64,000 bases of DNA from a virus (IMGVR_UViG_3300010397_000045:1-64000); one strand, 5' to 3'. Shown: positions 3,506 to 18,805, counted from the stretch's first letter. Numbers and translations are program-made. The notes: a model not told the origin generated them from the sequence alone.

Positions 3506-4329
3506 CTATTTGCGCCGCCGCTTCTTTGGTTTTCCAAATATCTTCTTTTCAAACTCTTCCATGTTCACAACACCGCGCAAGGCTTCCTCGGCTCTGCGCA
3601 GGCGCACGTCCGCGAGCTGAGCCCGCAGATCTGTCAGGTGTTCCTTGAGATTGTTGCGTGCCAGCGATGTCATGAGCAACGCCGATTCGCACCAGTCGAG
3701 CTGTGTGACATCTGCGCTGCTCATCGTTTGGCTTCTTTCGGAACGTGCTGTTCAAAGATGACTCCTGTGTTGGTCTCTCCATTCCACAAGGCCGCCGTGC
3801 CGCCACGTGGAGGCTCAGTGAATTGGTAGGAGTTCTCAGGCACACCGATGGTTGCATGAGGTCCTGAAAGTCCAGCCGCGCGGCAGACCCGACACCACTC
3901 ATTATAATCGGCGTATCGTTTCATTCACCTCTCCTCATCCGGTGCACCGTCACCCGCAGGGCCAGGATCTCGGCTATTCATCCGGCGCAGCATCCGTCCA
4001 CCGGCGGTGTTGCGGCCAGCACTCTGGGCTTCCCAGGCTATGTAGCAGATGTCCGTGCAGATCCTTGGCCATGTTGACAAACCGGGTGATCTCTTCCTCG
4101 GTAGGTTCTACACGCATATCGCTCATGTCTTTTCACCCCATTCAACCCAGACGCCCTGTGCGAAGCTGGCGACCGGGTTACGACCGTTGCAGACCCCACC
4201 ATCCCACTCAAGATACACGGTCAGGCAACCGTCGCCCTCCACATGGCAGGTGTACCACTTGTTAGCCCCGTCAGTCCGGAAGTATCGCACCTCTTGATCT
4301 TTCAACACAACGCGGATGGCGTTACTCAT
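3506..4329 (-). other. Cluster of short hypothetical genes (3506-3724, 3721-3924, 4123-4329)
   Basis: Small ORFs, some with ATGA-type stop/start overlaps, in the early operon. Confidence 0.55.
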
Positions 4330-6212
4330 ACGTTCACCTTCACCGTCTTAGCCCAACTGCGCCCCGTGGAACCGTCGGACAACATAGGTACTTTGAACTT
4401 AACGTCTGCCATGCACTCGTTGAGGCACTCGTGGGCTGTCATGTGGTTCACGAACTGGGCGAGTGTCAACAGCTCATCATGCACCTGCAGGATCAACGGG
4501 AACTCATCGTCGTAGCCGGCCTCGTAGTAATTCAACATCGCTTTTTTGGTACAGTCGGCCGCGGACCCTTGCACGTACGTGTTGAGCATCTTGTAACCGA
4601 AGTCCATCACGCGGTTGAACTTCTTTACGAACTTCGGCGGCTCGCAGTAGTAGCGCCGGCCACCCCATGTGAAGAGTGGCTCGCCCGACTTCGCGAGCGC
4701 ATCCAACTCTTCCTTGAGCGTCTTCAGCCCCGGCAGCGCCGCCGCATGGGCCCGAAGTAGGATACGCGCCTGTTTCAAGGGCAACCCCAACTTCAAGGCG
4801 AGCTTGGTGATACCCATGCCGTAGATCACGCCGAAGTTGATATCCTTAGTCTGGCGGCGCTCGACTATGATGTGCACCAGTTCCTCGATCAGTTCCTTGA
4901 CGGCTACGTGCGCGTCGATCTTGGGGTTGTCCAAGTACTTGGCGAGGAACGGACCGTTCTCACGATCGGCCAGGATGCGCAACTCCTGCTGGGAGTAGTC
5001 GCGCTTGATGATGCACAACCGACCCGCCTTGAACCTGACGCCGTTCAACTCAACGCCCGGCACAATGTAATCACGTACCACCGGCATGTTGGGGTCGTCC
5101 ACTTTGCGCGGCACATTCTGCAGGTTTGGGGTCATCGACAGGCGCCCCGTCTCGGTACCGACCTGCTTCTTGCTGCTGCCGTGGTAGTCCTGCCGTACCT
5201 GGTTGTAGCGGGCGTAAAACCGGCCGCCGTTCTCACGGCCCTGAATCAGCCACGGCCGCATGAACGTCGATAGGAAGGTCTGTAGCTGGCTACGGCGTTC
5301 GAGCAGACCTATCAGCACCGGGTCGGCCTCGACCTCTCTCAAGCTGTCTATGGAGGTCGAACGCTGGCCCGTAGGGTGCGCCTGCGACGGATCGGTCATA
5401 ATCCACTCTTTTACGGCGCCGACCCGCTCGAGCGCATCTGCCAGGGAGTCTCCCGACCAGGTAAAATCATCCCACTGGGACTTCGGGACCTTCAACCGCT
5501 TCTTGAGTGCCGCCTCCATCTTGTTGAGAGTCTTCTCATACACCGGAATGTCCTTCTCCAACCGGCGCGTCGCCACCGGCACCCCGCGGCGCTCCATACG
5601 AATCATGACCCGTGTCAGGTTGCGCTCGCGATCGTAGGCTCCGACAAGTCTGGGCTCACCCAACACGGTCTTGACATACCGGCGGAACAGACCCGCGGTG
5701 CGCGTGATGTCGCCCTTGGCATAGCGGCCAACGAGGTCGCCGGGTGCACGGGCAATGTAGGCGCCCCATCGCGTCTTTGCCTGGCGGGCCTCGGGCACAT
5801 TCTTGACAATCCAATCACGCAGCTCGTCGCGTTCGGTCGGCGCCTCACCTAAGAGTTTCTCGGCCAACGGCTTCAACGAGAACGTGCTCGAACGGGGGTC
5901 ATCCAAGAACGCCAGGATGAGTGTATCGTGGTGTTCGGTAGGCCACGGCACACCGACGTGTGTCTCCATCACATCTAAGTCGAACCCGGCGTGGTGCCAA
6001 CAGAACACATACCCCTCACGCACCAGCGACTGATAATGGTGTTTGGCATCGGCCATAGATGAGTTGTTGTACGTCGGGTGACCCCATGCGTGGTAGAATG
6101 GCTTGTGCCCGGGTGCCATGATGGCAAGCCCTACGGGCTTAGGCGGATATCGCGGCCGCCCCTCGATGGCCTCGGTCTCGAAGTCGGCAAACGCGACGCG
6201 TTTGAGTTCCAT
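4326..6212 (-). CDS. polA: Family A DNA polymerase with 3'-5' exonuclease domain
   Basis: ExoI DFET, HHAGFD, TGRLS...PNLQN, motif A DYSQQELR, motif B RRQTKDINFGVIYG, motif C QVHDEL. Confidence 0.96.
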   Translation of the reverse strand: MELKRVAFADFETEAIEGRPRYPPKPVGLAIMAPGHKPFYHAWGHPTYNNSSMADAKHHYQSLVREGYVFCWHHAGFDLDVMETHVGVPWPTEHHDTLILAFLDDPRSSTFSLKPLAEKLLGEAPTERDELRDWIVKNVPEARQAKTRWGAYIARAPGDLVGRYAKGDITRTAGLFRRYVKTVLGEPRLVGAYDRERNLTRVMIRMERRGVPVATRRLEKDIPVYEKTLNKMEAALKKRLKVPKSQWDDFTWSGDSLADALERVGAVKEWIMTDPSQAHPTGQRSTSIDSLREVEADPVLIGLLERRSQLQTFLSTFMRPWLIQGRENGGRFYARYNQVRQDYHGSSKKQVGTETGRLSMTPNLQNVPRKVDDPNMPVVRDYIVPGVELNGVRFKAGRLCIIKRDYSQQELRILADRENGPFLAKYLDNPKIDAHVAVKELIEELVHIIVERRQTKDINFGVIYGMGITKLALKLGLPLKQARILLRAHAAALPGLKTLKEELDALAKSGEPLFTWGGRRYYCEPPKFVKKFNRVMDFGYKMLNTYVQGSAADCTKKAMLNYYEAGYDDEFPLILQVHDELLTLAQFVNHMTAHECLNECMADVKFKVPMLSDGSTGRSWAKTVKVNV

Positions 6213-6798: not shown

Positions 6799-8026
6799 GA
6801 CACCAACTCCATCTCGTCCTCGCACTCTTTCTGAAAATCGATGCCTAGGTCCTTCCTGGCGCCGATGGGCTCGTGCTGCTGATAGTCGTCGCGCCGCGGG
6901 CGCAGGCAGCAGACGCAGAACACCCACGGCCCCGAAGGAGGTGGTGGCTGCCCCTGGACGTCCACCGCATACACATCTCCACAGGGCGTCATATGACTCA
7001 AACGTTTTTCAGATCCGATGATGACAGCGACATGCTCGCCGCGCGGCATCTCATTAAAGCCGACATTTCTCGCCCACACCGGATCTCCCGGGTTGTACCT
7101 CATAACAGATCCTCCTACAACGGTACGTATCGGCGTGCTCCACACGCACAGTGCTCGATACGGTAAGACCATATGACACGTCCATATTTAACGATGGTGC
7201 TGCGGGCAACCCAACCGTGTCGCAAGCAGAAAAGTCCTTGACGACGCGTATCCACGAGCGGGATACAAATCACAATCACAGTCGATCTATTCAGTTCAGC
7301 CACTTTGGTACCAACACCGGTAGCTCATCAACAGGTTTCAATGTTGCATCCTGAGGATCAAGCGGTCGCAGCTCGGCCGTGATCTTATGGCCGAACGCGG
7401 CCTCGCGGGAGCGTATCTCCAGTATCGCCCGGTCGCAGTACCAGCGGGTGGCCTCGCGGCAGACCTCGAGTGTGGGATACGGATCGGAGCTGTTGATGAT
7501 GTCGCGAAACGACCCTCCCGGCGCGAGATGCACCAGCCGCCAGCCGTCGAGATAGTGGACGTAGTGCACACGCACCAGCAGCTCGTGCTCCACAGCCTCG
7601 AGCCCGTTGAAATCCATCATGACGGCCGCGGCAACCGCGCTGCGATCTTGATGGCATCCGCCAGGATCGCGATGGTGTTTTTGTCGTCCGTGTTCTGCAT
7701 GAGGTTCACCTGGCCATCCTGCTCGCTATACCACACCACCGCAACTGCGAGTGGCTCGGCGCCAAGATGCTTCTTCAGCACCTCTGTGATACCCTCAGCC
7801 AGCGCCTGACTGTTTACGTTGCTCATTTCAACCACTCCAAGAGTGCATCGGCTGCACCCACCGCAACTAACGACAAATCCCACAGCGAACCAGAACGGTT
7901 TGGGTTCGCCATGATGCCTTGCATCTGCATGGATGCCATCAGCTCGCGCTTGGTGAGACCTCCTTCGGCGACGATCACATCACCGACCTTGCGTAGGGTT
8001 GTAAAAGCAGATTCGTTCCCATTCAT
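6795..8026 (-). other. Cluster of short hypothetical genes (6795-7103, 7291-7620, 7617-7826, 7823-8026)
   Basis: Chain of overlapping start/stop codons; 7823-8026 has the common phage motif GLTKRELMA...MQGIMANP. Confidence 0.55.
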
Positions 8027-8613
8027 ACTACCACCTTTGTATTGAACCGGCGCAGCCGGGTATCGTTCGGTAAATACAAGGGGTGCTTGGGTTGACCCGA
8101 AGCAGTTACCCCCAGCGAATATAGTTTCGCCGACCCCATCCAACCTACGACTGTCTGGTTTTGTCCCAGGTAGGACCCGTGATTACCCCAGGCGCAGACC
8201 ACCAGACCGGTATCTAGCGTCATAGTTGCGTTCTCGACTGCCGTCATGTTGTCAACGCCTACCGCTTCGTCCAGGTTCAACCTGAAAAGCTCCTCCGGTA
8301 TGGTAGCTCGGTAGGCAAACAAATTCACTACCTCGAGCCGCTCATATTTCCATCGCCGGGCAAATTCAACGCAGCGCTTGATGGTGGCATCATCGTGTGA
8401 ACCATCCGCCGTGGAGGGGTTCAGCATGACAAATACGCACGACTTGGGATGTCCGAGTGGATTTCCACTGCGATCTAATACCAACGATCTACCGCTGCTT
8501 ACCCAATGCCAGTTTTTCGGATCGTGCGTGCCACGCCACTCGCGCCACAACCGATAGCGGTAGCGGCCGCATTTGGATATGTCGGCGCCGGCGTCTGTGT
8601 ATGTGGGTTTCAT
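8023..8613 (-). CDS. DUF1643 domain protein
   Basis: CGRYRYRLWR...VMLNPSTAD...DDATIKRC...NLFAYRAT...AWG...PKHPLY. Confidence 0.88.
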   Translation of the reverse strand: MKPTYTDAGADISKCGRYRYRLWREWRGTHDPKNWHWVSSGRSLVLDRSGNPLGHPKSCVFVMLNPSTADGSHDDATIKRCVEFARRWKYERLEVVNLFAYRATIPEELFRLNLDEAVGVDNMTAVENATMTLDTGLVVCAWGNHGSYLGQNQTVVGWMGSAKLYSLGVTASGQPKHPLYLPNDTRLRRFNTKVVV

Positions 8614-10820: not shown

Positions 10821-11324
10821 TCATTTGAGCCCCATCGCCCGCAGTTGCTCTCTCACAGATTCGCTGATAGCATCGATCTCCTCGCGCTTCCAGCAATCCT
10901 TGTCGGCACACGGTGGGCCGTCGTGATCGTCGTCGCATTTGACGGCAGGTTTATCCCAGTCGGCTACATGAGCTTGGATGCTGCGCTCCACGTTCGGCCG
11001 CAAGATCTCCATCAACATGGAGCCGGCAGGCATCCCATTCATTTGCCTGGTAAAATCCGTGAGCATCTTCTCAGGATCGCGCGTCTCGGCGTAGTGGCTC
11101 AACACGACAAGGGCCAACAACTCGTTCTGCTGGAGCTGTAATACGTGGGGTGTGAGCGCCTGACAGACCCAGTACATGACAGATGTCATGTTCTTCTCGA
11201 ACATGTCCTCACGCCCGCGTTTGCGTGCCTCGACCAGTATTCCAAGCAACACCATAACGCGTCCCATCAACGGGCCATCAGCCCTGTCAACCTTGCCCGC
11301 GAACATTTCCTCTAATGTACTCAT
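10821..11324 (-). CDS. Hypothetical protein
   Basis: 167-aa ORF with a GAGG RBS, immediately downstream of the ncRNA. Confidence 0.6.
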   Translation of the reverse strand: MSTLEEMFAGKVDRADGPLMGRVMVLLGILVEARKRGREDMFEKNMTSVMYWVCQALTPHVLQLQQNELLALVVLSHYAETRDPEKMLTDFTRQMNGMPAGSMLMEILRPNVERSIQAHVADWDKPAVKCDDDHDGPPCADKDCWKREEIDAISESVREQLRAMGLK

Positions 11325-11445
11325 GACTGCAGACCTCTCGTGTTGTATTTAAAGAAGGAGCCCGCCCAACGCAGGAAGCCAGCGCTAAATCCGTGGCACA
11401 GAATTCCAACAGCTTATCTGGGTTTCCCCCGTTTTTAACAGGGAC

Positions 11446-11535
11446 AACCTTGCTCACTTTCACCTTGCAGCCTTGCGTCAATTGAACCTTGCGCACTTTC
11501 ACCTTTGAGCCTTGAGCCTCTTAAGTTGGACTTGC
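11446..11535 (-). repeat. Periodic (C)AAG(G) repeat tract including two copies of AAGGTGAAAGTGMGCAAGGTT
   Basis: About 10 AAG units, mostly 6-9 nt apart, directly 3' of the tRNA-like CCA. Confidence 0.8.
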
Positions 11536-11537
11536 CA

Positions 11538-11624
11538 TGGTTGCTTGTGGAGGATTCGAACCTCCGAGCCTTGTTAAGGCAACACCCTTTCGGGCGCCGT
11601 GTCTACCAACTTCACCAACAAGCG
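11538..11624 (-). tRNA. tRNA-Leu-shaped element lacking an anticodon loop (GAAA tetraloop)
   Basis: CGCUUGU-UG-GUGAAGUUGGUAGACAC-G-GCGCCC[GAAA]GGGUGU-U-GCCUU[AAC]AAGGC-UC-GGAGG[UUCGAAU]CCUCC-ACAAGCA-A-CCA: intact D, variable and T arms and encoded CCA. Confidence 0.85.
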
Positions 11625-11701
11625 TTTGACGACCGCATAACGCCGCGGTCAGCGTTCTGTCTACTTGGATTCTACTCTGCGTGTCGGGCATCGTAAAAAC
11701 T

Positions 11702-12250
11702 CTACTTCAACGTAATCGGCTGGTCTAGCCGACCCTCCAACAAATCCGTCGTCGCATTCACGATCTCCAAGTGCCCATCTATGATCGATGGCTCGCGGCG
11801 ATACAGGTCCAACCGGCGGTCGCGCTCCTCCGGGTCCCAGTGCCGTACGATCTTCACCATCAGCGGATCGGCCCCAGGCGCCAGCTGCACCTGGCCCTCG
11901 CGCCGGTTACCATCACCGATGTCGCCCCACAGCCTCAACGCTAGCGGGGCCAGGTCCTTGCGGCGGTGAATCCACCCGGCAATCGTGTGAGTCACCTGCT
12001 TGCCATCCAGCTCTATCGTGACGTTGGTCAACAAGTTGGTTCGCTGAATCGCCAGGCGCAGATGCAGGATGCGCTTCAGCGTATCCTCATGGCTTTGAGT
12101 CCACTCCCGGATTTTCTGCTTCATGTCTTCGTACTTCGGCGTGTCGGTTGACAGGTTGGCGCAGTTGGCGGCAACCTTGGTCCGCAGGTCCGCCGCCTTT
12201 TCGGCCAGGTCCCGCAACTCTCTCATCGCCTGTATGATCTTCACCTTCAT
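11702..12250 (-). CDS. DIP1984/DUF6847-like coiled-coil protein
   Basis: KIIQAMRELRDL...LRLAIQRTNLLT...TIAGWIHRRKDL...IVNATTDL resembles the family pattern (MKL.EAL..R.DL / I..TN..T / T...AI..RD / N..T.L); GAGGAG RBS. Confidence 0.7.
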   Translation of the reverse strand: MKVKIIQAMRELRDLAEKAADLRTKVAANCANLSTDTPKYEDMKQKIREWTQSHEDTLKRILHLRLAIQRTNLLTNVTIELDGKQVTHTIAGWIHRRKDLAPLALRLWGDIGDGNRREGQVQLAPGADPLMVKIVRHWDPEERDRRLDLYRREPSIIDGHLEIVNATTDLLEGRLDQPITLK

Positions 12251-12465: not shown

Positions 12466-12687
12466 TCATGTTGGTATCTCCACCAGATATGCCACACCTG
12501 CGAATGGGTCAGACGTACCGACAGGTACCACGGACCACGTACGGCAATACATAGTACCTCGGATGAGCGACCGCCTCGCACCGTATAACTCGACGAGTCT
12601 GTGACCGGGGTACTTCGTCTGGCACACCTGGTCTGGAGGGTTGTCGTACAGTATCGCGTCCGGGTGGCACAACTCGAGCGTTCTCAT
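12466..12687 (-). CDS. Hypothetical protein
   Basis: 73-aa ORF with ATGA overlap to the Rieske gene. Confidence 0.5.
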   Translation of the reverse strand: MRTLELCHPDAILYDNPPDQVCQTKYPGHRLVELYGARRSLIRGTMYCRTWSVVPVGTSDPFAGVAYLVEIPT

Positions 12688-13298
12688 AACAGCCGCGTTC
12701 TATCGCCAGCAGCAACACGATCATCGCGATCGCTGCGAGTCTGTACATCCACATCGAGAACCCTCCCGGTTGCCTTGTCGAACCTCAATCCATGTGCAGG
12801 GCAGACCAACACGCCGCCAACTTCTTCGTACATCGCCTCCACGGGCGTACCCTTGTGTGGGCAGCGCCCGTTCATAATCGCCTGGCCACAATACCGATCG
12901 CGCAAGCGCACCTGCCACGGCACGATCGCAGGTCTGAGACAGACCATTAGCCGCGGGATGAGCGTGAGATATGGCAGGATATCGGCATCCATGCAGATGC
13001 TCGAGGTCTCGAGCCTGTTCGGACTGCCCAACCGGCGCAACTCACTGCGGTATAAGTCCTCCGGCACGAACTGCCAGTTGATGTGCGCGTGATGGCCTTT
13101 GAAGGCACCCGATGACGTGTTGAAGCTGTTGGGTATGAAACCCTCATCCACCTGGAACTCGTGCAACAACGGCAGCCAACCGTTAAAACCCTGGTAGTCC
13201 CTTAGGATATACGAGCCGCCCGACGGCGTCTGCTTGTCGAGCACCACGTTGAGCTGTAGGCACAACACGTTGTACTGCTTCCCCACTTCGTAACTCAT
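12684..13298 (-). CDS. Protein with C-terminal Rieske [2Fe-2S]-type domain
   Basis: RCPHKG...LVCPAHGLRFDKATG (CxH...CxxH); AAGGAG RBS. Confidence 0.75.
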   Translation of the reverse strand: MSYEVGKQYNVLCLQLNVVLDKQTPSGGSYILRDYQGFNGWLPLLHEFQVDEGFIPNSFNTSSGAFKGHHAHINWQFVPEDLYRSELRRLGSPNRLETSSICMDADILPYLTLIPRLMVCLRPAIVPWQVRLRDRYCGQAIMNGRCPHKGTPVEAMYEEVGGVLVCPAHGLRFDKATGRVLDVDVQTRSDRDDRVAAGDRTRLL

Positions 13299-16801: not shown

Positions 16802-18805
16802 CTACTCCAGTGTGTTAGTTACAGTTGAGTCCATATGCGCGCTGCGCTCGGCATGGGATGCGCGCTCCCACTTATCGACATTGCGCATGGCGAACAGGAC
16901 GTCGATGACACCCCTCTTGCAGCGTGTTTTGGACAACTGTTTTATGTTGGGGTTACGCCGCAATGCGCGCGCCACTGCCACCAATGAAAACTCGCTTCTA
17001 GGGTTGTGCACCTGTAATAACGAGGTCAACTCTTTTACTGTCCACAGGTCGCGCTTCGACCCCATCACATAACCATCGAAGCCACCAACTAACTCACGCA
17101 CGGCGTAATCGATGAAAGAACCCGAGATGCCGATCATCCACGCTTTGGCGTCGGTCATGGGCGCAGCCCCGCGTGGGTCAAAGCCGTTCGTGTTGATATG
17201 TAACAGGTAGTCGAAGATCGCCGCGGCATTGGTTTTGTTCTTGAACCACGGATCGTAGTTCTGCGTATACCAGGCTTCAGGGTGTATCTGGTCCGATATC
17301 TCCCATACGAACCAGCGGCGGTCCTTGGCGTCGAGCGATAGCGCGTCGGGGTTGTTGGTAGTGAGGTAGATGTTGGCGCAGTCGCGCAGCTCGTATTCCA
17401 CCTGAAACTTCGCATTGATCGTTACATACTCCTGGGTGATGAGGTTGTTGAGGAACGCCACGTCCTCGCGCTTATCGCGCCCGGTTACCTCATCTCCCAG
17501 TATGAACTGCTTGTGCTTGGCCCACTCGTTGAACGAGTCGTGTATGTTCTGCGCTCTTATCCCCTTGAAGTTGTCCCCGTAGATGGGCCGCATCGTCTCG
17601 GCAAGGAGCGACTTGCCGACACCCTGCATGGTGGAGAACATCAACACACCGGTATAGAGCTTGACACCGGGATGTTGTAATGGGTAAGCTAGCCATTGGA
17701 GAAACCATTTGCGGTATCTACCATCTACATCAGCATGAAACACCTGGTCCAGAAGCTCCATGAAAGGGGTAACATCACCTTTTGCAGGTTTAACACCCCA
17801 ACCCTTCCATACGTTGAAAGATCCGTCTGGTGGTGTTTCGGGTTGGCCTGGTGCGTACACCAGTGATTTAGCCGTGCGTTTACCAGGCCACTTGGACCAT
17901 TCTATAAATGTGTTGACCTGCTTCTGTTTGCCGTCCATGTCATACTTAACCATCGTACGATCCCCATAAGCGATCGTGGCAAGTGTCTGGAGCTTCGAAT
18001 ACAACGTACGGCTGGGCAGGTGATACACAGCTACCTTGTCGGTTATAATACACAACTCTTTGTTCAGATTCTCCAAAGCCACCAGATCATCGAACGGAAC
18101 CGGTACCAGTTTATCAAAAGCCTCCCGGCCATTGGCGACCAGGTAGTCGTCGAGCCCGGCCTTCTCACCCGCCTTTAACGATGGCAGTCGTACGGCGAAT
18201 GGATGGCCACCATGATGACGTATTACACGTGCCAGTGCGTGCAGGGCATTATCAACATGGGGGTTGGGTACGGCATCATTGTCGAAACAGATCAGGATGC
18301 GGCGACCGTTCATGAAAGGCACCAGGCTATCAATCAACGTATGTTTCTGTCCTCGAGAGCCCCAACTCCATACACCGCCCAACCCTATACACGGCAGACG
18401 TAGAAACTTGACAGCAGCAGCAGCTTTCTTCTCTCCTTCTGTAATGATGAGGTCAACCTTGGGGTCTGCTTTGACGTCGGCCCAAGTCCATTTACCGGCA
18501 CACAGTGTTGGTGGTGGGAAATAAGCGTGCACCCCTGTGCCCTTGGGTTGGGTGTACTTCCACAATTTACCGGTGCCTTTGTCAACAACCTCATCCGTGA
18601 ATTTGTAGCGTGAAAAACAATTGACTTTACCCGTAAGGTCGAAATAGGGGATCTCGTACCCGGCAGCCTCCTGTTTTACGAGTTTCTTCATGGATGTCGG
18701 GGTCACCGGTCGTACACACATGTGCTTGGCATCCTTGGAATCCAGACCGGACCTGCTTAGATCCTTTAACATGGACTCGTAGACGGCCTGCTCGACGACG
18801 GTCAT
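16802..18805 (-). CDS. Primase-helicase (DUF3854 TOPRIM-like domain plus SF3/DUF5906 NTPase)
   Basis: ITEGEKKA, GLGGVW, ICFDND, GLDD; Walker A QGVGKS, GDE, TTN, DRRW. Confidence 0.9.
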   Translation of the reverse strand: MTVVEQAVYESMLKDLSRSGLDSKDAKHMCVRPVTPTSMKKLVKQEAAGYEIPYFDLTGKVNCFSRYKFTDEVVDKGTGKLWKYTQPKGTGVHAYFPPPTLCAGKWTWADVKADPKVDLIITEGEKKAAAAVKFLRLPCIGLGGVWSWGSRGQKHTLIDSLVPFMNGRRILICFDNDAVPNPHVDNALHALARVIRHHGGHPFAVRLPSLKAGEKAGLDDYLVANGREAFDKLVPVPFDDLVALENLNKELCIITDKVAVYHLPSRTLYSKLQTLATIAYGDRTMVKYDMDGKQKQVNTFIEWSKWPGKRTAKSLVYAPGQPETPPDGSFNVWKGWGVKPAKGDVTPFMELLDQVFHADVDGRYRKWFLQWLAYPLQHPGVKLYTGVLMFSTMQGVGKSLLAETMRPIYGDNFKGIRAQNIHDSFNEWAKHKQFILGDEVTGRDKREDVAFLNNLITQEYVTINAKFQVEYELRDCANIYLTTNNPDALSLDAKDRRWFVWEISDQIHPEAWYTQNYDPWFKNKTNAAAIFDYLLHINTNGFDPRGAAPMTDAKAWMIGISGSFIDYAVRELVGGFDGYVMGSKRDLWTVKELTSLLQVHNPRSEFSLVAVARALRRNPNIKQLSKTRCKRGVIDVLFAMRNVDKWERASHAERSAHMDSTVTNTLE

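Follow-up and report, generated by a model that had tools for sequence, protein, structure and literature searches.

Non-decoding structures with the shape of a transfer RNA (tRNA) stand beside other RNAs in several systems. In plant and animal mitochondria, and in haloarchaea where a tRNA-like structure lies upstream of 5S rRNA, they are known as t-elements or tRNA punctuation, and cuts by RNase P and RNase Z at such structures would create the end of the neighbouring RNA. Non-decoding tRNA look-alikes also guide the enzymes of tRNA-end processing to make another RNA in the tRNA-miRNA units of murid gammaherpesvirus 68 and in MALAT1-mascRNA. In the tRNA cluster of phage T4 (RNA C/D) and the E. 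coli leuZ operon with its 3′ external transcribed spacer (3′ETS), a small functional RNA is co-transcribed with a tRNA, which in E. coli is a tRNA-Leu, and freed by processing. The bacterial Y RNA-like RNA YrlA (RF02553) contains a tRNA-like domain that has been proposed to recruit or occupy tRNA-binding factors. The tRNA genes of phages are usually interpreted as tools of codon usage or anti-defence. Here we describe a tRNA-Leu-shaped module of 87 nucleotides (nt) on the minus strand of the phage sequence IMGVR_UViG_3300010397_000045:1-64000, in which a GAAA tetraloop stands in place of the anticodon loop, and which directly precedes a conserved small RNA element that we call the AAGG-repeat RNA. 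The window, that is, the whole 64,000-nt stretch analysed, covers the initial 64 kb of an IMG/VR virus record of 72,999 bp, the completeness of which is rated 100%.

The module is like the t-elements in being a non-decoding tRNA shape beside another RNA. Across its relatives, a tRNA-like fold flanked the end of the AAGG-repeat RNA in 51 of 122 loci, and in the window it is placed where, by analogy, RNase P and RNase Z cuts would create the end of the neighbouring RNA. Unlike t-elements, it belongs to a phage and heads a specific conserved small RNA, and the position it occupies (hereafter the slot) alternates between real tRNAs, look-alikes sealed by a short loop, and permuted look-alikes. It is also distinct from the gammaherpesvirus 68 and MALAT1-mascRNA units, which are eukaryotic and depend on RNA polymerase III or nuclear processing, in being part of a bacterial virus. 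In contrast to the T4 cluster and the leuZ 3′ETS with their decoding tRNAs, the tRNA of the window has lost its anticodon and was apparently kept for its shape only. The titles and abstract openings returned by a full-text literature search held no bacterial-virus example of a tRNA-like release handle, and nothing on DUF6847 (the domain of the neighbouring protein, see below), anticodon-less phage tRNA look-alikes or tRNA-headed phage small RNAs.

Read on the minus strand, the module showed every feature that a first-pass annotation of this DNA had listed for a tRNA-Leu-shaped RNA with GAAA for an anticodon loop. The acceptor strands are CGCUUGU and ACAAGCA, with C1 facing A72; the D arm is 18 nt long, the variable arm has 5 bp and a 3-nt loop, the T arm (GGAGG-UUCGAAU-CCUCC) is perfect, A73 is present and CCA is encoded. 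The stem under the tetraloop has 6 bp, or 7 counting one further G:U pair, and the minimum-free-energy fold is a cloverleaf in which the 7-bp stem has the GAAA cap. As the annotation had expected, ARAGORN reported an undetermined tRNA (tRNA-???, with a two-base 'anticodon'), and it called no other tRNA in the window. The Rfam tRNA family RF00005 matched the module at 32.3 bits, above its gathering score of 29, with E = 7e-5 in a permissive search of 601 nt and E = 2e-6 when searched across the 73-kb genome, where this was the sole tRNA-like gene; a whole-window Rfam scan with default filters did not list it. No transfer-messenger RNA (tmRNA) was called by ARAGORN in the window, nor was there an Rfam tmRNA match at the locus.

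Typical of type-II tRNA-Leu are the module's extended variable arm, its A73 and its D arm of Leu type, the 18 nt of which are letter-identical to those of three unrelated phage genes called tRNA-Leu by ARAGORN. The module, to judge from its sequence, is derived from a tRNA-Leu gene, and a canonical tRNA-Leu(UAA) that occupies the same slot in a locus of another clade (L041) indicates, in kind, what it derives from. It resembles a canonical phage tRNA-Leu of RF00005 in its type-II cloverleaf, D arm, A73, CCA and score, and differs in having no 7-nt anticodon loop and a C1:A72 mismatch. Canonical loops have 7 nt with U33, a three-base anticodon and a purine at 37, and elongator tRNAs have a paired 1:72 position; the module has neither. 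Because the anticodon loop is absent, its place being closed by a GNRA tetraloop, the RNA cannot decode, as the annotation had held.

The sealed loop is neither an isolated reading of one assembly nor confined to one phage. A second assembly (a Logan contig of run X1, possibly from the same sample) was identical across 11250-11800 at a depth of 8.6, and contigs of runs X2 and X3, from other studies, were identical where they overlapped, although no contig of X2-X4 extends over the loop itself. The strongest argument against an assembly artefact is the sister locus L010, which has the same design: the close-relative check suggested in the first-pass annotation revealed a 4-nt GNRA loop here too, and not a 7-nt loop, on a stem of 6 bp with one bulge. 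In a quick maximum-likelihood tree (IQ-TREE) built from the neighbour protein, window and L010 are sisters (SH-aLRT 96; path length 0.96 changes per site). Their neighbour proteins are 57% identical, the two modules are 70% identical, and the entire intergenic region is conserved between them. A degenerate pattern for sealed Leu-type modules retrieved five stretches, four of them ordinary terminators and the fifth L010's own contig.

Between the window and L010 we counted five compensatory double changes, three in the acceptor stem and two in the T stem, and no double change that breaks a pair, in contrast to the uncompensated stem changes by which a neutral pseudogene would be recognized. Since the GNRA loop survived this divergence with compensated stems, the comparison indicates that the sealed design is under selection and is neither an assembly error nor free decay, in agreement with the earlier view of a clean replacement. 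The C1:A72 mismatch, which that annotation had also singled out, fared less well. It is present in the window, and 1:72 was the weakest pair among slot elements, unpaired in 19 of 61 aligned hits; it is not conserved, however, as L010 has C1-G72. The sister also reads ACC-U where the window has ACCA, and thus has no encoded CCA.

Relatives were collected through the 182-amino-acid protein encoded upstream of the module, a DUF6847-like protein with 80 homologues in a large protein collection. An alignment of 36 of these homologues led to 80 metagenome loci, the best of 351 that were confirmed, and to 80 loci of IMG/VR, the best of 99; together they collapsed to 138 distinct loci. Searches for loci with single proteins (both neighbours and the DNA polymerase) gave no close relatives, and a 24-nt 3′-half pattern had no match in IMG/VR. 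Against cultured phages, blastn found no match and tblastn of the neighbour protein no homologue; thus no laboratory phage with this unit is known.

The AAGG-repeat element begins 15 nt past the CCA of the module. Its 5′ half consists of 8-9 (C/U/A)AAGG repeats at a spacing of 7-9 nt, and its 3′ half of helices, followed by an invariant GGCUUCC that opens the terminal hairpin and then by a U-run. By nhmmer, the element was conserved across many loci with or without a tRNA: a 163-position hidden Markov model (HMM) built from 34 sequences matched the window at 11519-11362 with 95 bits, and matched 123 of the 138 distinct loci, lying downstream of the DUF6847-like gene in 109 and upstream in 14. 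No Rfam family matches it. We consider it an apparently undescribed and widespread phage RNA family. Direct repeats of 30 nt at 11446-11475 and 11485-11514 (period 39) belong to this region, and a 14-nt piece of them resembles the junction of the variable arm and T stem of the module (11560-11573).

One helix of the element, located by anchors, had all 7 of its pairs in 54% of 117 sequences, compared to 13% in a control in which strands were paired across sequences, and its pair types vary widely. Anchored pair counts replaced RNAalifold, which gave only two pairs on a MAFFT alignment in which two subfamilies are offset by 1-2 columns. When the helix was located by Watson-Crick pairs only, the non-canonical cells held 55 G:U, 20 A:C and 26 other combinations (p = 6e-5, a value that is indicative only, the sequences being related). 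This asymmetry points to an RNA that shares the tRNA module's direction of transcription. The fold of the whole intergenic region was not better than those of shuffled sequences (z = -0.21).

Other signals in the intergenic region complete what looks like a transcription unit, whose features are collected in the table. Its order is a promoter-like motif, a leader of about 37 nt with a hairpin, the tRNA-shaped module, the AAGG-repeat RNA of about 160 nt, and a terminator hairpin. Of 109 loci, 71 had the promoter-like motif no more than 250 nt ahead of the element, and 13 had it in a downstream control; the motif may serve the RNA unit as a phage-specific promoter.

Table. Features of the RNA unit in the window, and related elements in other loci.
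Feature	Position or locus	Strand	Basis or remark
tRNA-Leu-derived anticodon-less module, 87 nt including CCA	11538-11624	minus	direct reading, ARAGORN, Rfam, fold
GAAA tetraloop	11591-11588	minus	replaces the anticodon loop
Tetraloop stem strands	11597-11592 and 11587-11582	minus	GCGCCC-GAAA-GGGUGU
AAGG-repeat structured RNA element	11362-11522	minus	nhmmer/HMM, covariation, G:U excess
Sigma-70-like promoter, TTTACG-17-TAGAAT	11669-11697	minus	prediction
Conserved promoter-like motif, including the predicted -10	11669-11688	minus	type CNACRCGCAGAG(A)TAAAA
Leader hairpin, 6-bp stem, 8-nt loop	11631-11650	minus	between promoter-like site and module; leader hairpins in relatives too
Terminator-like hairpin and U-rich tail	11351-11375 (hairpin 11375-11361)	minus	homologous hairpin and U-run in relatives
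DUF6847-like gene, 182 amino acids	11702-12250	minus	upstream of the module; weak Pfam DUF6847 match
Sister element, Leu-type, 83 nt	L010 (same contig as L085, L169), same position		GCAA tetraloop
Permuted look-alikes	L110, L150, L037, L107, L155, L134, L141, upstream of the element		strict parser
Further permuted look-alikes	L145, L140, L137, upstream of the element		by eye

tRNA genes were frequent at this place in the relatives. In 51 of 136 loci, ARAGORN called a tRNA on the same strand within 700 nt downstream of the protein homologue; no call fell on the opposite strand, and an upstream control had 8 in 134 loci. A covariance model of 34 elements gave a match of at least 25 bits starting 0-150 nt past the stop codon in 41 of 128 loci. 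Measured from the RNA element instead, the 51 of 122 loci mentioned above are those with a tRNA-shaped match of at least 25 bits ending at most 110 nt upstream; most were 2-43 nt away, and the linker between module and element spans 2 to 99 nt across loci. The module precedes the element even in loci with the element on the upstream side of the gene; the tRNA thus accompanies the RNA rather than the gene.

Of these 51 modules, 28 had canonical anticodon loops and 23 deviant or sealed ones. The canonical group is made up of 17 modules and a further 11 that an over-strict filter had flagged solely because positions 32:38 and 33:37 could pair. Among the deviant group, 15 break the rules for U33, R37 or A34, three have loops that are not 7 nt long, and five were not called by ARAGORN. 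Sealed or shortened loops recur, with GAAA in the window, GCAA in L010, UUCG in L006 and L126 (where the caps are independent) and UGUA in L118, and 6-nt loops occur in L098, L082, L062 and L055. Near-identical bodies carry differing 'anticodons' in the pairs L035/L074 and L021/L023. The four stems were nevertheless 93.6% paired in 61 distinct tRNA-shaped hits, compared to 55.8% in shuffles (the set comprised 62 aligned hits, a minority being other tRNA genes elsewhere in the same loci). Because loops vary on near-identical bodies while the stems stay paired, decoding is often dispensable in the slot and the fold is not. The pattern indicates that the tRNA shape, i.e. the stack of acceptor and T arm and the elbow of D and T arms, is what is selected, rather than the anticodon.

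Other observations on the slot concern particular loops and loci. An A34 within a 7-nt loop, which is very unusual for bacterial-type tRNAs, was seen in nine of the 51 modules (L019, L021, L023, L040, L074, L078, L102, L123 and L149; 'anticodons' AUU, ACA, ACU, AAC, AAU, AUG and AGG), reflecting either a drifting loop or some A34-specific feature. Two slot tRNAs have a UGA-reading UCA anticodon (L045:2521-2595 and L138:2406-2478) and were classed as tRNA-SeC by ARAGORN; they may be suppressor tRNAs of stop-recoding phages. In L116 (3594-5624) and L152 (2734-6061), the gene is followed not by the module and element but by an extended tRNA array with as many as 17 genes, and L116 has no match to the element.

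Some loci lacking a full match to the model hold a different version of the same shape. A T-arm-like hairpin occurred at most 120 nt upstream of the element in 24 of 71 such loci (four in the control). In the permuted cloverleaf, the order is the 3′ strand of the 'anticodon' stem, variable region, T arm, an acceptor stem closed by a loop, D arm, and the 5′ strand of the 'anticodon' stem. A strict parser run over 1.30 Mb (both strands) found this arrangement 19 times, with seven cases ending 8-29 nt ahead of the element and 12 at other places. All stems of these look-alikes covary, and their 'anticodon' stem opens toward the element. As neither RNase P nor RNase Z could excise the permuted form, the shape must act within the RNA in the phages that have it; this suggests that the shape may act in cis, beyond serving as a mere cut signal.

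The permuted mimics share the topology of the YrlA tRNA-like domain, which is likewise fused to a second RNA module. All seven permuted loci submitted gave hits to the Rfam YrlA model (26.7-43.7 bits, E from 1.4e-6 to 0.11), below its gathering score of 69. Because this model also weakly matches 13 of 14 control genomes, we speak of resemblance and not of membership. The window module itself, unlike YrlA, has normal tRNA topology and is attached to the AAGG-repeat RNA rather than to a Ro-binding stem. Its phage genome has no YrlA match even at E ≤ 10, which leaves the module outside RF02553, and no gene for a TROVE/Ro (Rsr) protein was found nearby, elsewhere in the phage genome or in five related records, only one of which is at least 90% complete.

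The reading that we rank first, though tentatively, is that the module is a processing handle, or tRNA punctuation, for the AAGG-repeat RNA. Host enzymes of tRNA maturation would recognise its tRNA shape: RNase P would cut at C1 and so take off the leader, and 3′-end processing just after the acceptor end would split the module from the AAGG-repeat RNA and set the 5′ end of the latter. The sealed loop would keep the look-alike, charged or uncharged, out of translation, with the processing signal retained. We favour this reading because it explains why real and sealed tRNAs are interchangeable and why linker length is free. A guide for RNase P and RNase Z cuts was also one of three roles put forward in the first-pass annotation, and it proved the best contextual fit of the three, with a conserved RNA starting so shortly past the CCA and with tRNAs or look-alikes retained by relatives at the very same spot. 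Several observations weigh against it. An encoded CCA, such as that of the window, disfavours RNase Z cleavage. The downstream RNA can do without the module, as 71 of 122 loci have no full tRNA-shaped match, and at least seven relatives have the permuted look-alike with its closed acceptor in the slot. L010 is the single close homologue found for the sealed Leu-type module, the fold energy of the module is not exceptional (z = -1.76, a modest value, with 8 of 200 shuffles as good), and none of the sequencing runs listed as holding this stretch is on record as RNA.

An alternative that we rank second and consider possible, if doubtful, is that the module is a permanent tRNA-mimic domain. In this case, trimmed by RNase P at most, it would stay attached as the 5′ domain of a composite, roughly 270-nt RNA, and its elbow would recruit or occupy RNase P, a modification enzyme, the CCA-adding enzyme, the ribosome or the DUF6847-like protein. 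The covarying, non-excisable permuted cloverleaves close to the element fit this well, as do their sub-threshold YrlA matches and the encoded CCA as an anti-determinant for RNase Z; moreover, the anticodon was removed in two independent ways with the body kept, as if the body worked in cis. A linker ranging from 2 to 99 nt would be odd for a single folded unit, however, and the 28 canonical modules of the 51 resemble ordinary tRNAs that are presumably excised. The YrlA hits fall far under the threshold, with a model that reacts to most control genomes, and no TROVE/Rsr gene was found in the phage or the five related records. The processing-handle and permanent-domain models are not exclusive across the family.

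The remaining explanations are much less probable. That the module is a neutral relic, a phage tRNA-Leu gene with a small deletion drifting to loss without function, would account for the 23 deviant modules, the frequently unpaired 1:72, the 49 changes of module type on the neighbour-protein tree and the 71 loci without a full module. We find it improbable, as drift would break stems and not produce a perfect tetraloop twice: sister phages with only 57% identity in the neighbour protein share the sealed design (GAAA and GCAA) with five compensatory changes, and UUCG caps arose independently in L006 and L126. Very improbable, too, is a leucine carrier outside translation, in which leucyl-tRNA synthetase (LeuRS) would charge the module and leucine would pass, for example, to a leucyl/phenylalanyl-tRNA protein transferase or to a cell-wall or lipid modification, or LeuRS would be titrated. 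Bacterial LeuRS does not read the anticodon, the body is type II, A73 and CCA are encoded and the D arm is that of real tRNA-Leu genes, but we found no aminoacyl-transferase gene among the 20 neighbouring open reading frames (ORFs) scanned, and L010 has no encoded CCA and a normal C1-G72. Since many other identities, and permuted forms without a 3′ end, also fill the slot, its function would be independent of leucine, and leucine carriage cannot, on this evidence, be its general function. An element acting as DNA, with the AAGG repeats as iterons of a replication origin next to a Gp157-like gene and the tRNA-like gene merely driving transcription, we hold to be highly unlikely. It does lie between primase and DNA polymerase genes, its repeats are iteron-like, the predicted structure of the neighbour protein is similar to Siphovirus Gp157 (TM 0.63), and origins lie near Gp157-like genes in dairy phages. 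This explanation is at odds with the excess of G:U over A:C on the tRNA strand of the covarying helix, with the terminator hairpin, U-run and promoter-like motif in the same orientation, and with a repeat spacing of about 7-9 nt that mismatches the DNA helical repeat. Least probable of all are an assembly error and a decoy or shield against anticodon nucleases (PrrC, RloC or PARIS-type). The loop does sit between short, indel-prone runs of C and G, but the identical X1 assembly and the 4-nt loop of L010 speak against an error. Phages do counter tRNA-cutting defences with tRNAs of their own; the decoy role raised in the first-pass annotation can nevertheless be set aside as unlikely, since a decoy must present the loop that the nuclease reads, and that loop is missing here.

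The AAGG-repeat element adjoins a DUF6847-like gene in 123 of 138 distinct loci, a genetic linkage that brings the protein into the picture. The model of the 182-amino-acid protein is confident (pLDDT 90.6) and shows a bundle of helices together with a small sheet. Among solved structures it matched 3kdq alone, a protein without a known function, and the ESM Atlas matches were hypothetical proteins, DUF6847 and, by structure, the Siphovirus Gp157 cluster. A broader proposal is that the tRNA look-alike, AAGG-repeat RNA and DUF6847/Gp157-like protein make up an undescribed phage ribonucleoprotein system. Here, tRNA mimicry, provided interchangeably by a real tRNA, a sealed tRNA or a permuted YrlA-like fold, would dock the RNA on the host machinery for tRNA handling or translation, and the 8-9 AAGG repeats, being single-stranded, would serve as binding sites for a multimeric protein or for a partner that contains CCUU. 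Taken with all its parts, we think this unlikely, though far from fanciful; if true, it would be a phage equivalent of chimeric RNAs of the Y-RNA or tmRNA type.

The RNA unit lies in the left arm of the genome, which on the minus strand forms a replication module with primase (16802-18805), DNA polymerase (4326-6212), exonuclease and helicase genes. The tRNA-like gene is housed in a 377-bp gap, and the unit falls between the primase and DNA polymerase genes. Downstream of the gap, ORF 10821-11324 is an orphan, its only match being a 99%-identical record that is apparently the same phage's copy. Also encoded in the arm are a DUF1643 protein (8023-8613, minus strand; E = 8e-35) and a Rieske [2Fe-2S] domain protein (12684-13298, minus strand). 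Cultured phages are distant, with at most 38% identity in the DNA polymerase and at most 55% in the portal protein to proteobacterial phages. Soil metagenome runs of at least three other studies (X2-X4) contain contigs 100% identical to the phage (window 11250-11800), and such contigs from several studies indicate that it is widespread in soils.

Globally, our data describe a non-decoding tRNA-shaped RNA within an apparently undescribed, widespread phage RNA-protein cassette. They flag a new RNA family and a linked protein in more than 100 uncultured phage loci, and show a phage lineage that keeps the body of a tRNA past the loss of its anticodon, at a fixed place before a conserved small RNA. 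A fraction of annotated 'phage tRNAs' is probably non-decoding. The slot, with its real, sealed and permuted Y-RNA-like occupants, provides a natural series in which a tRNA gene can be seen turning into a pure shape signal.
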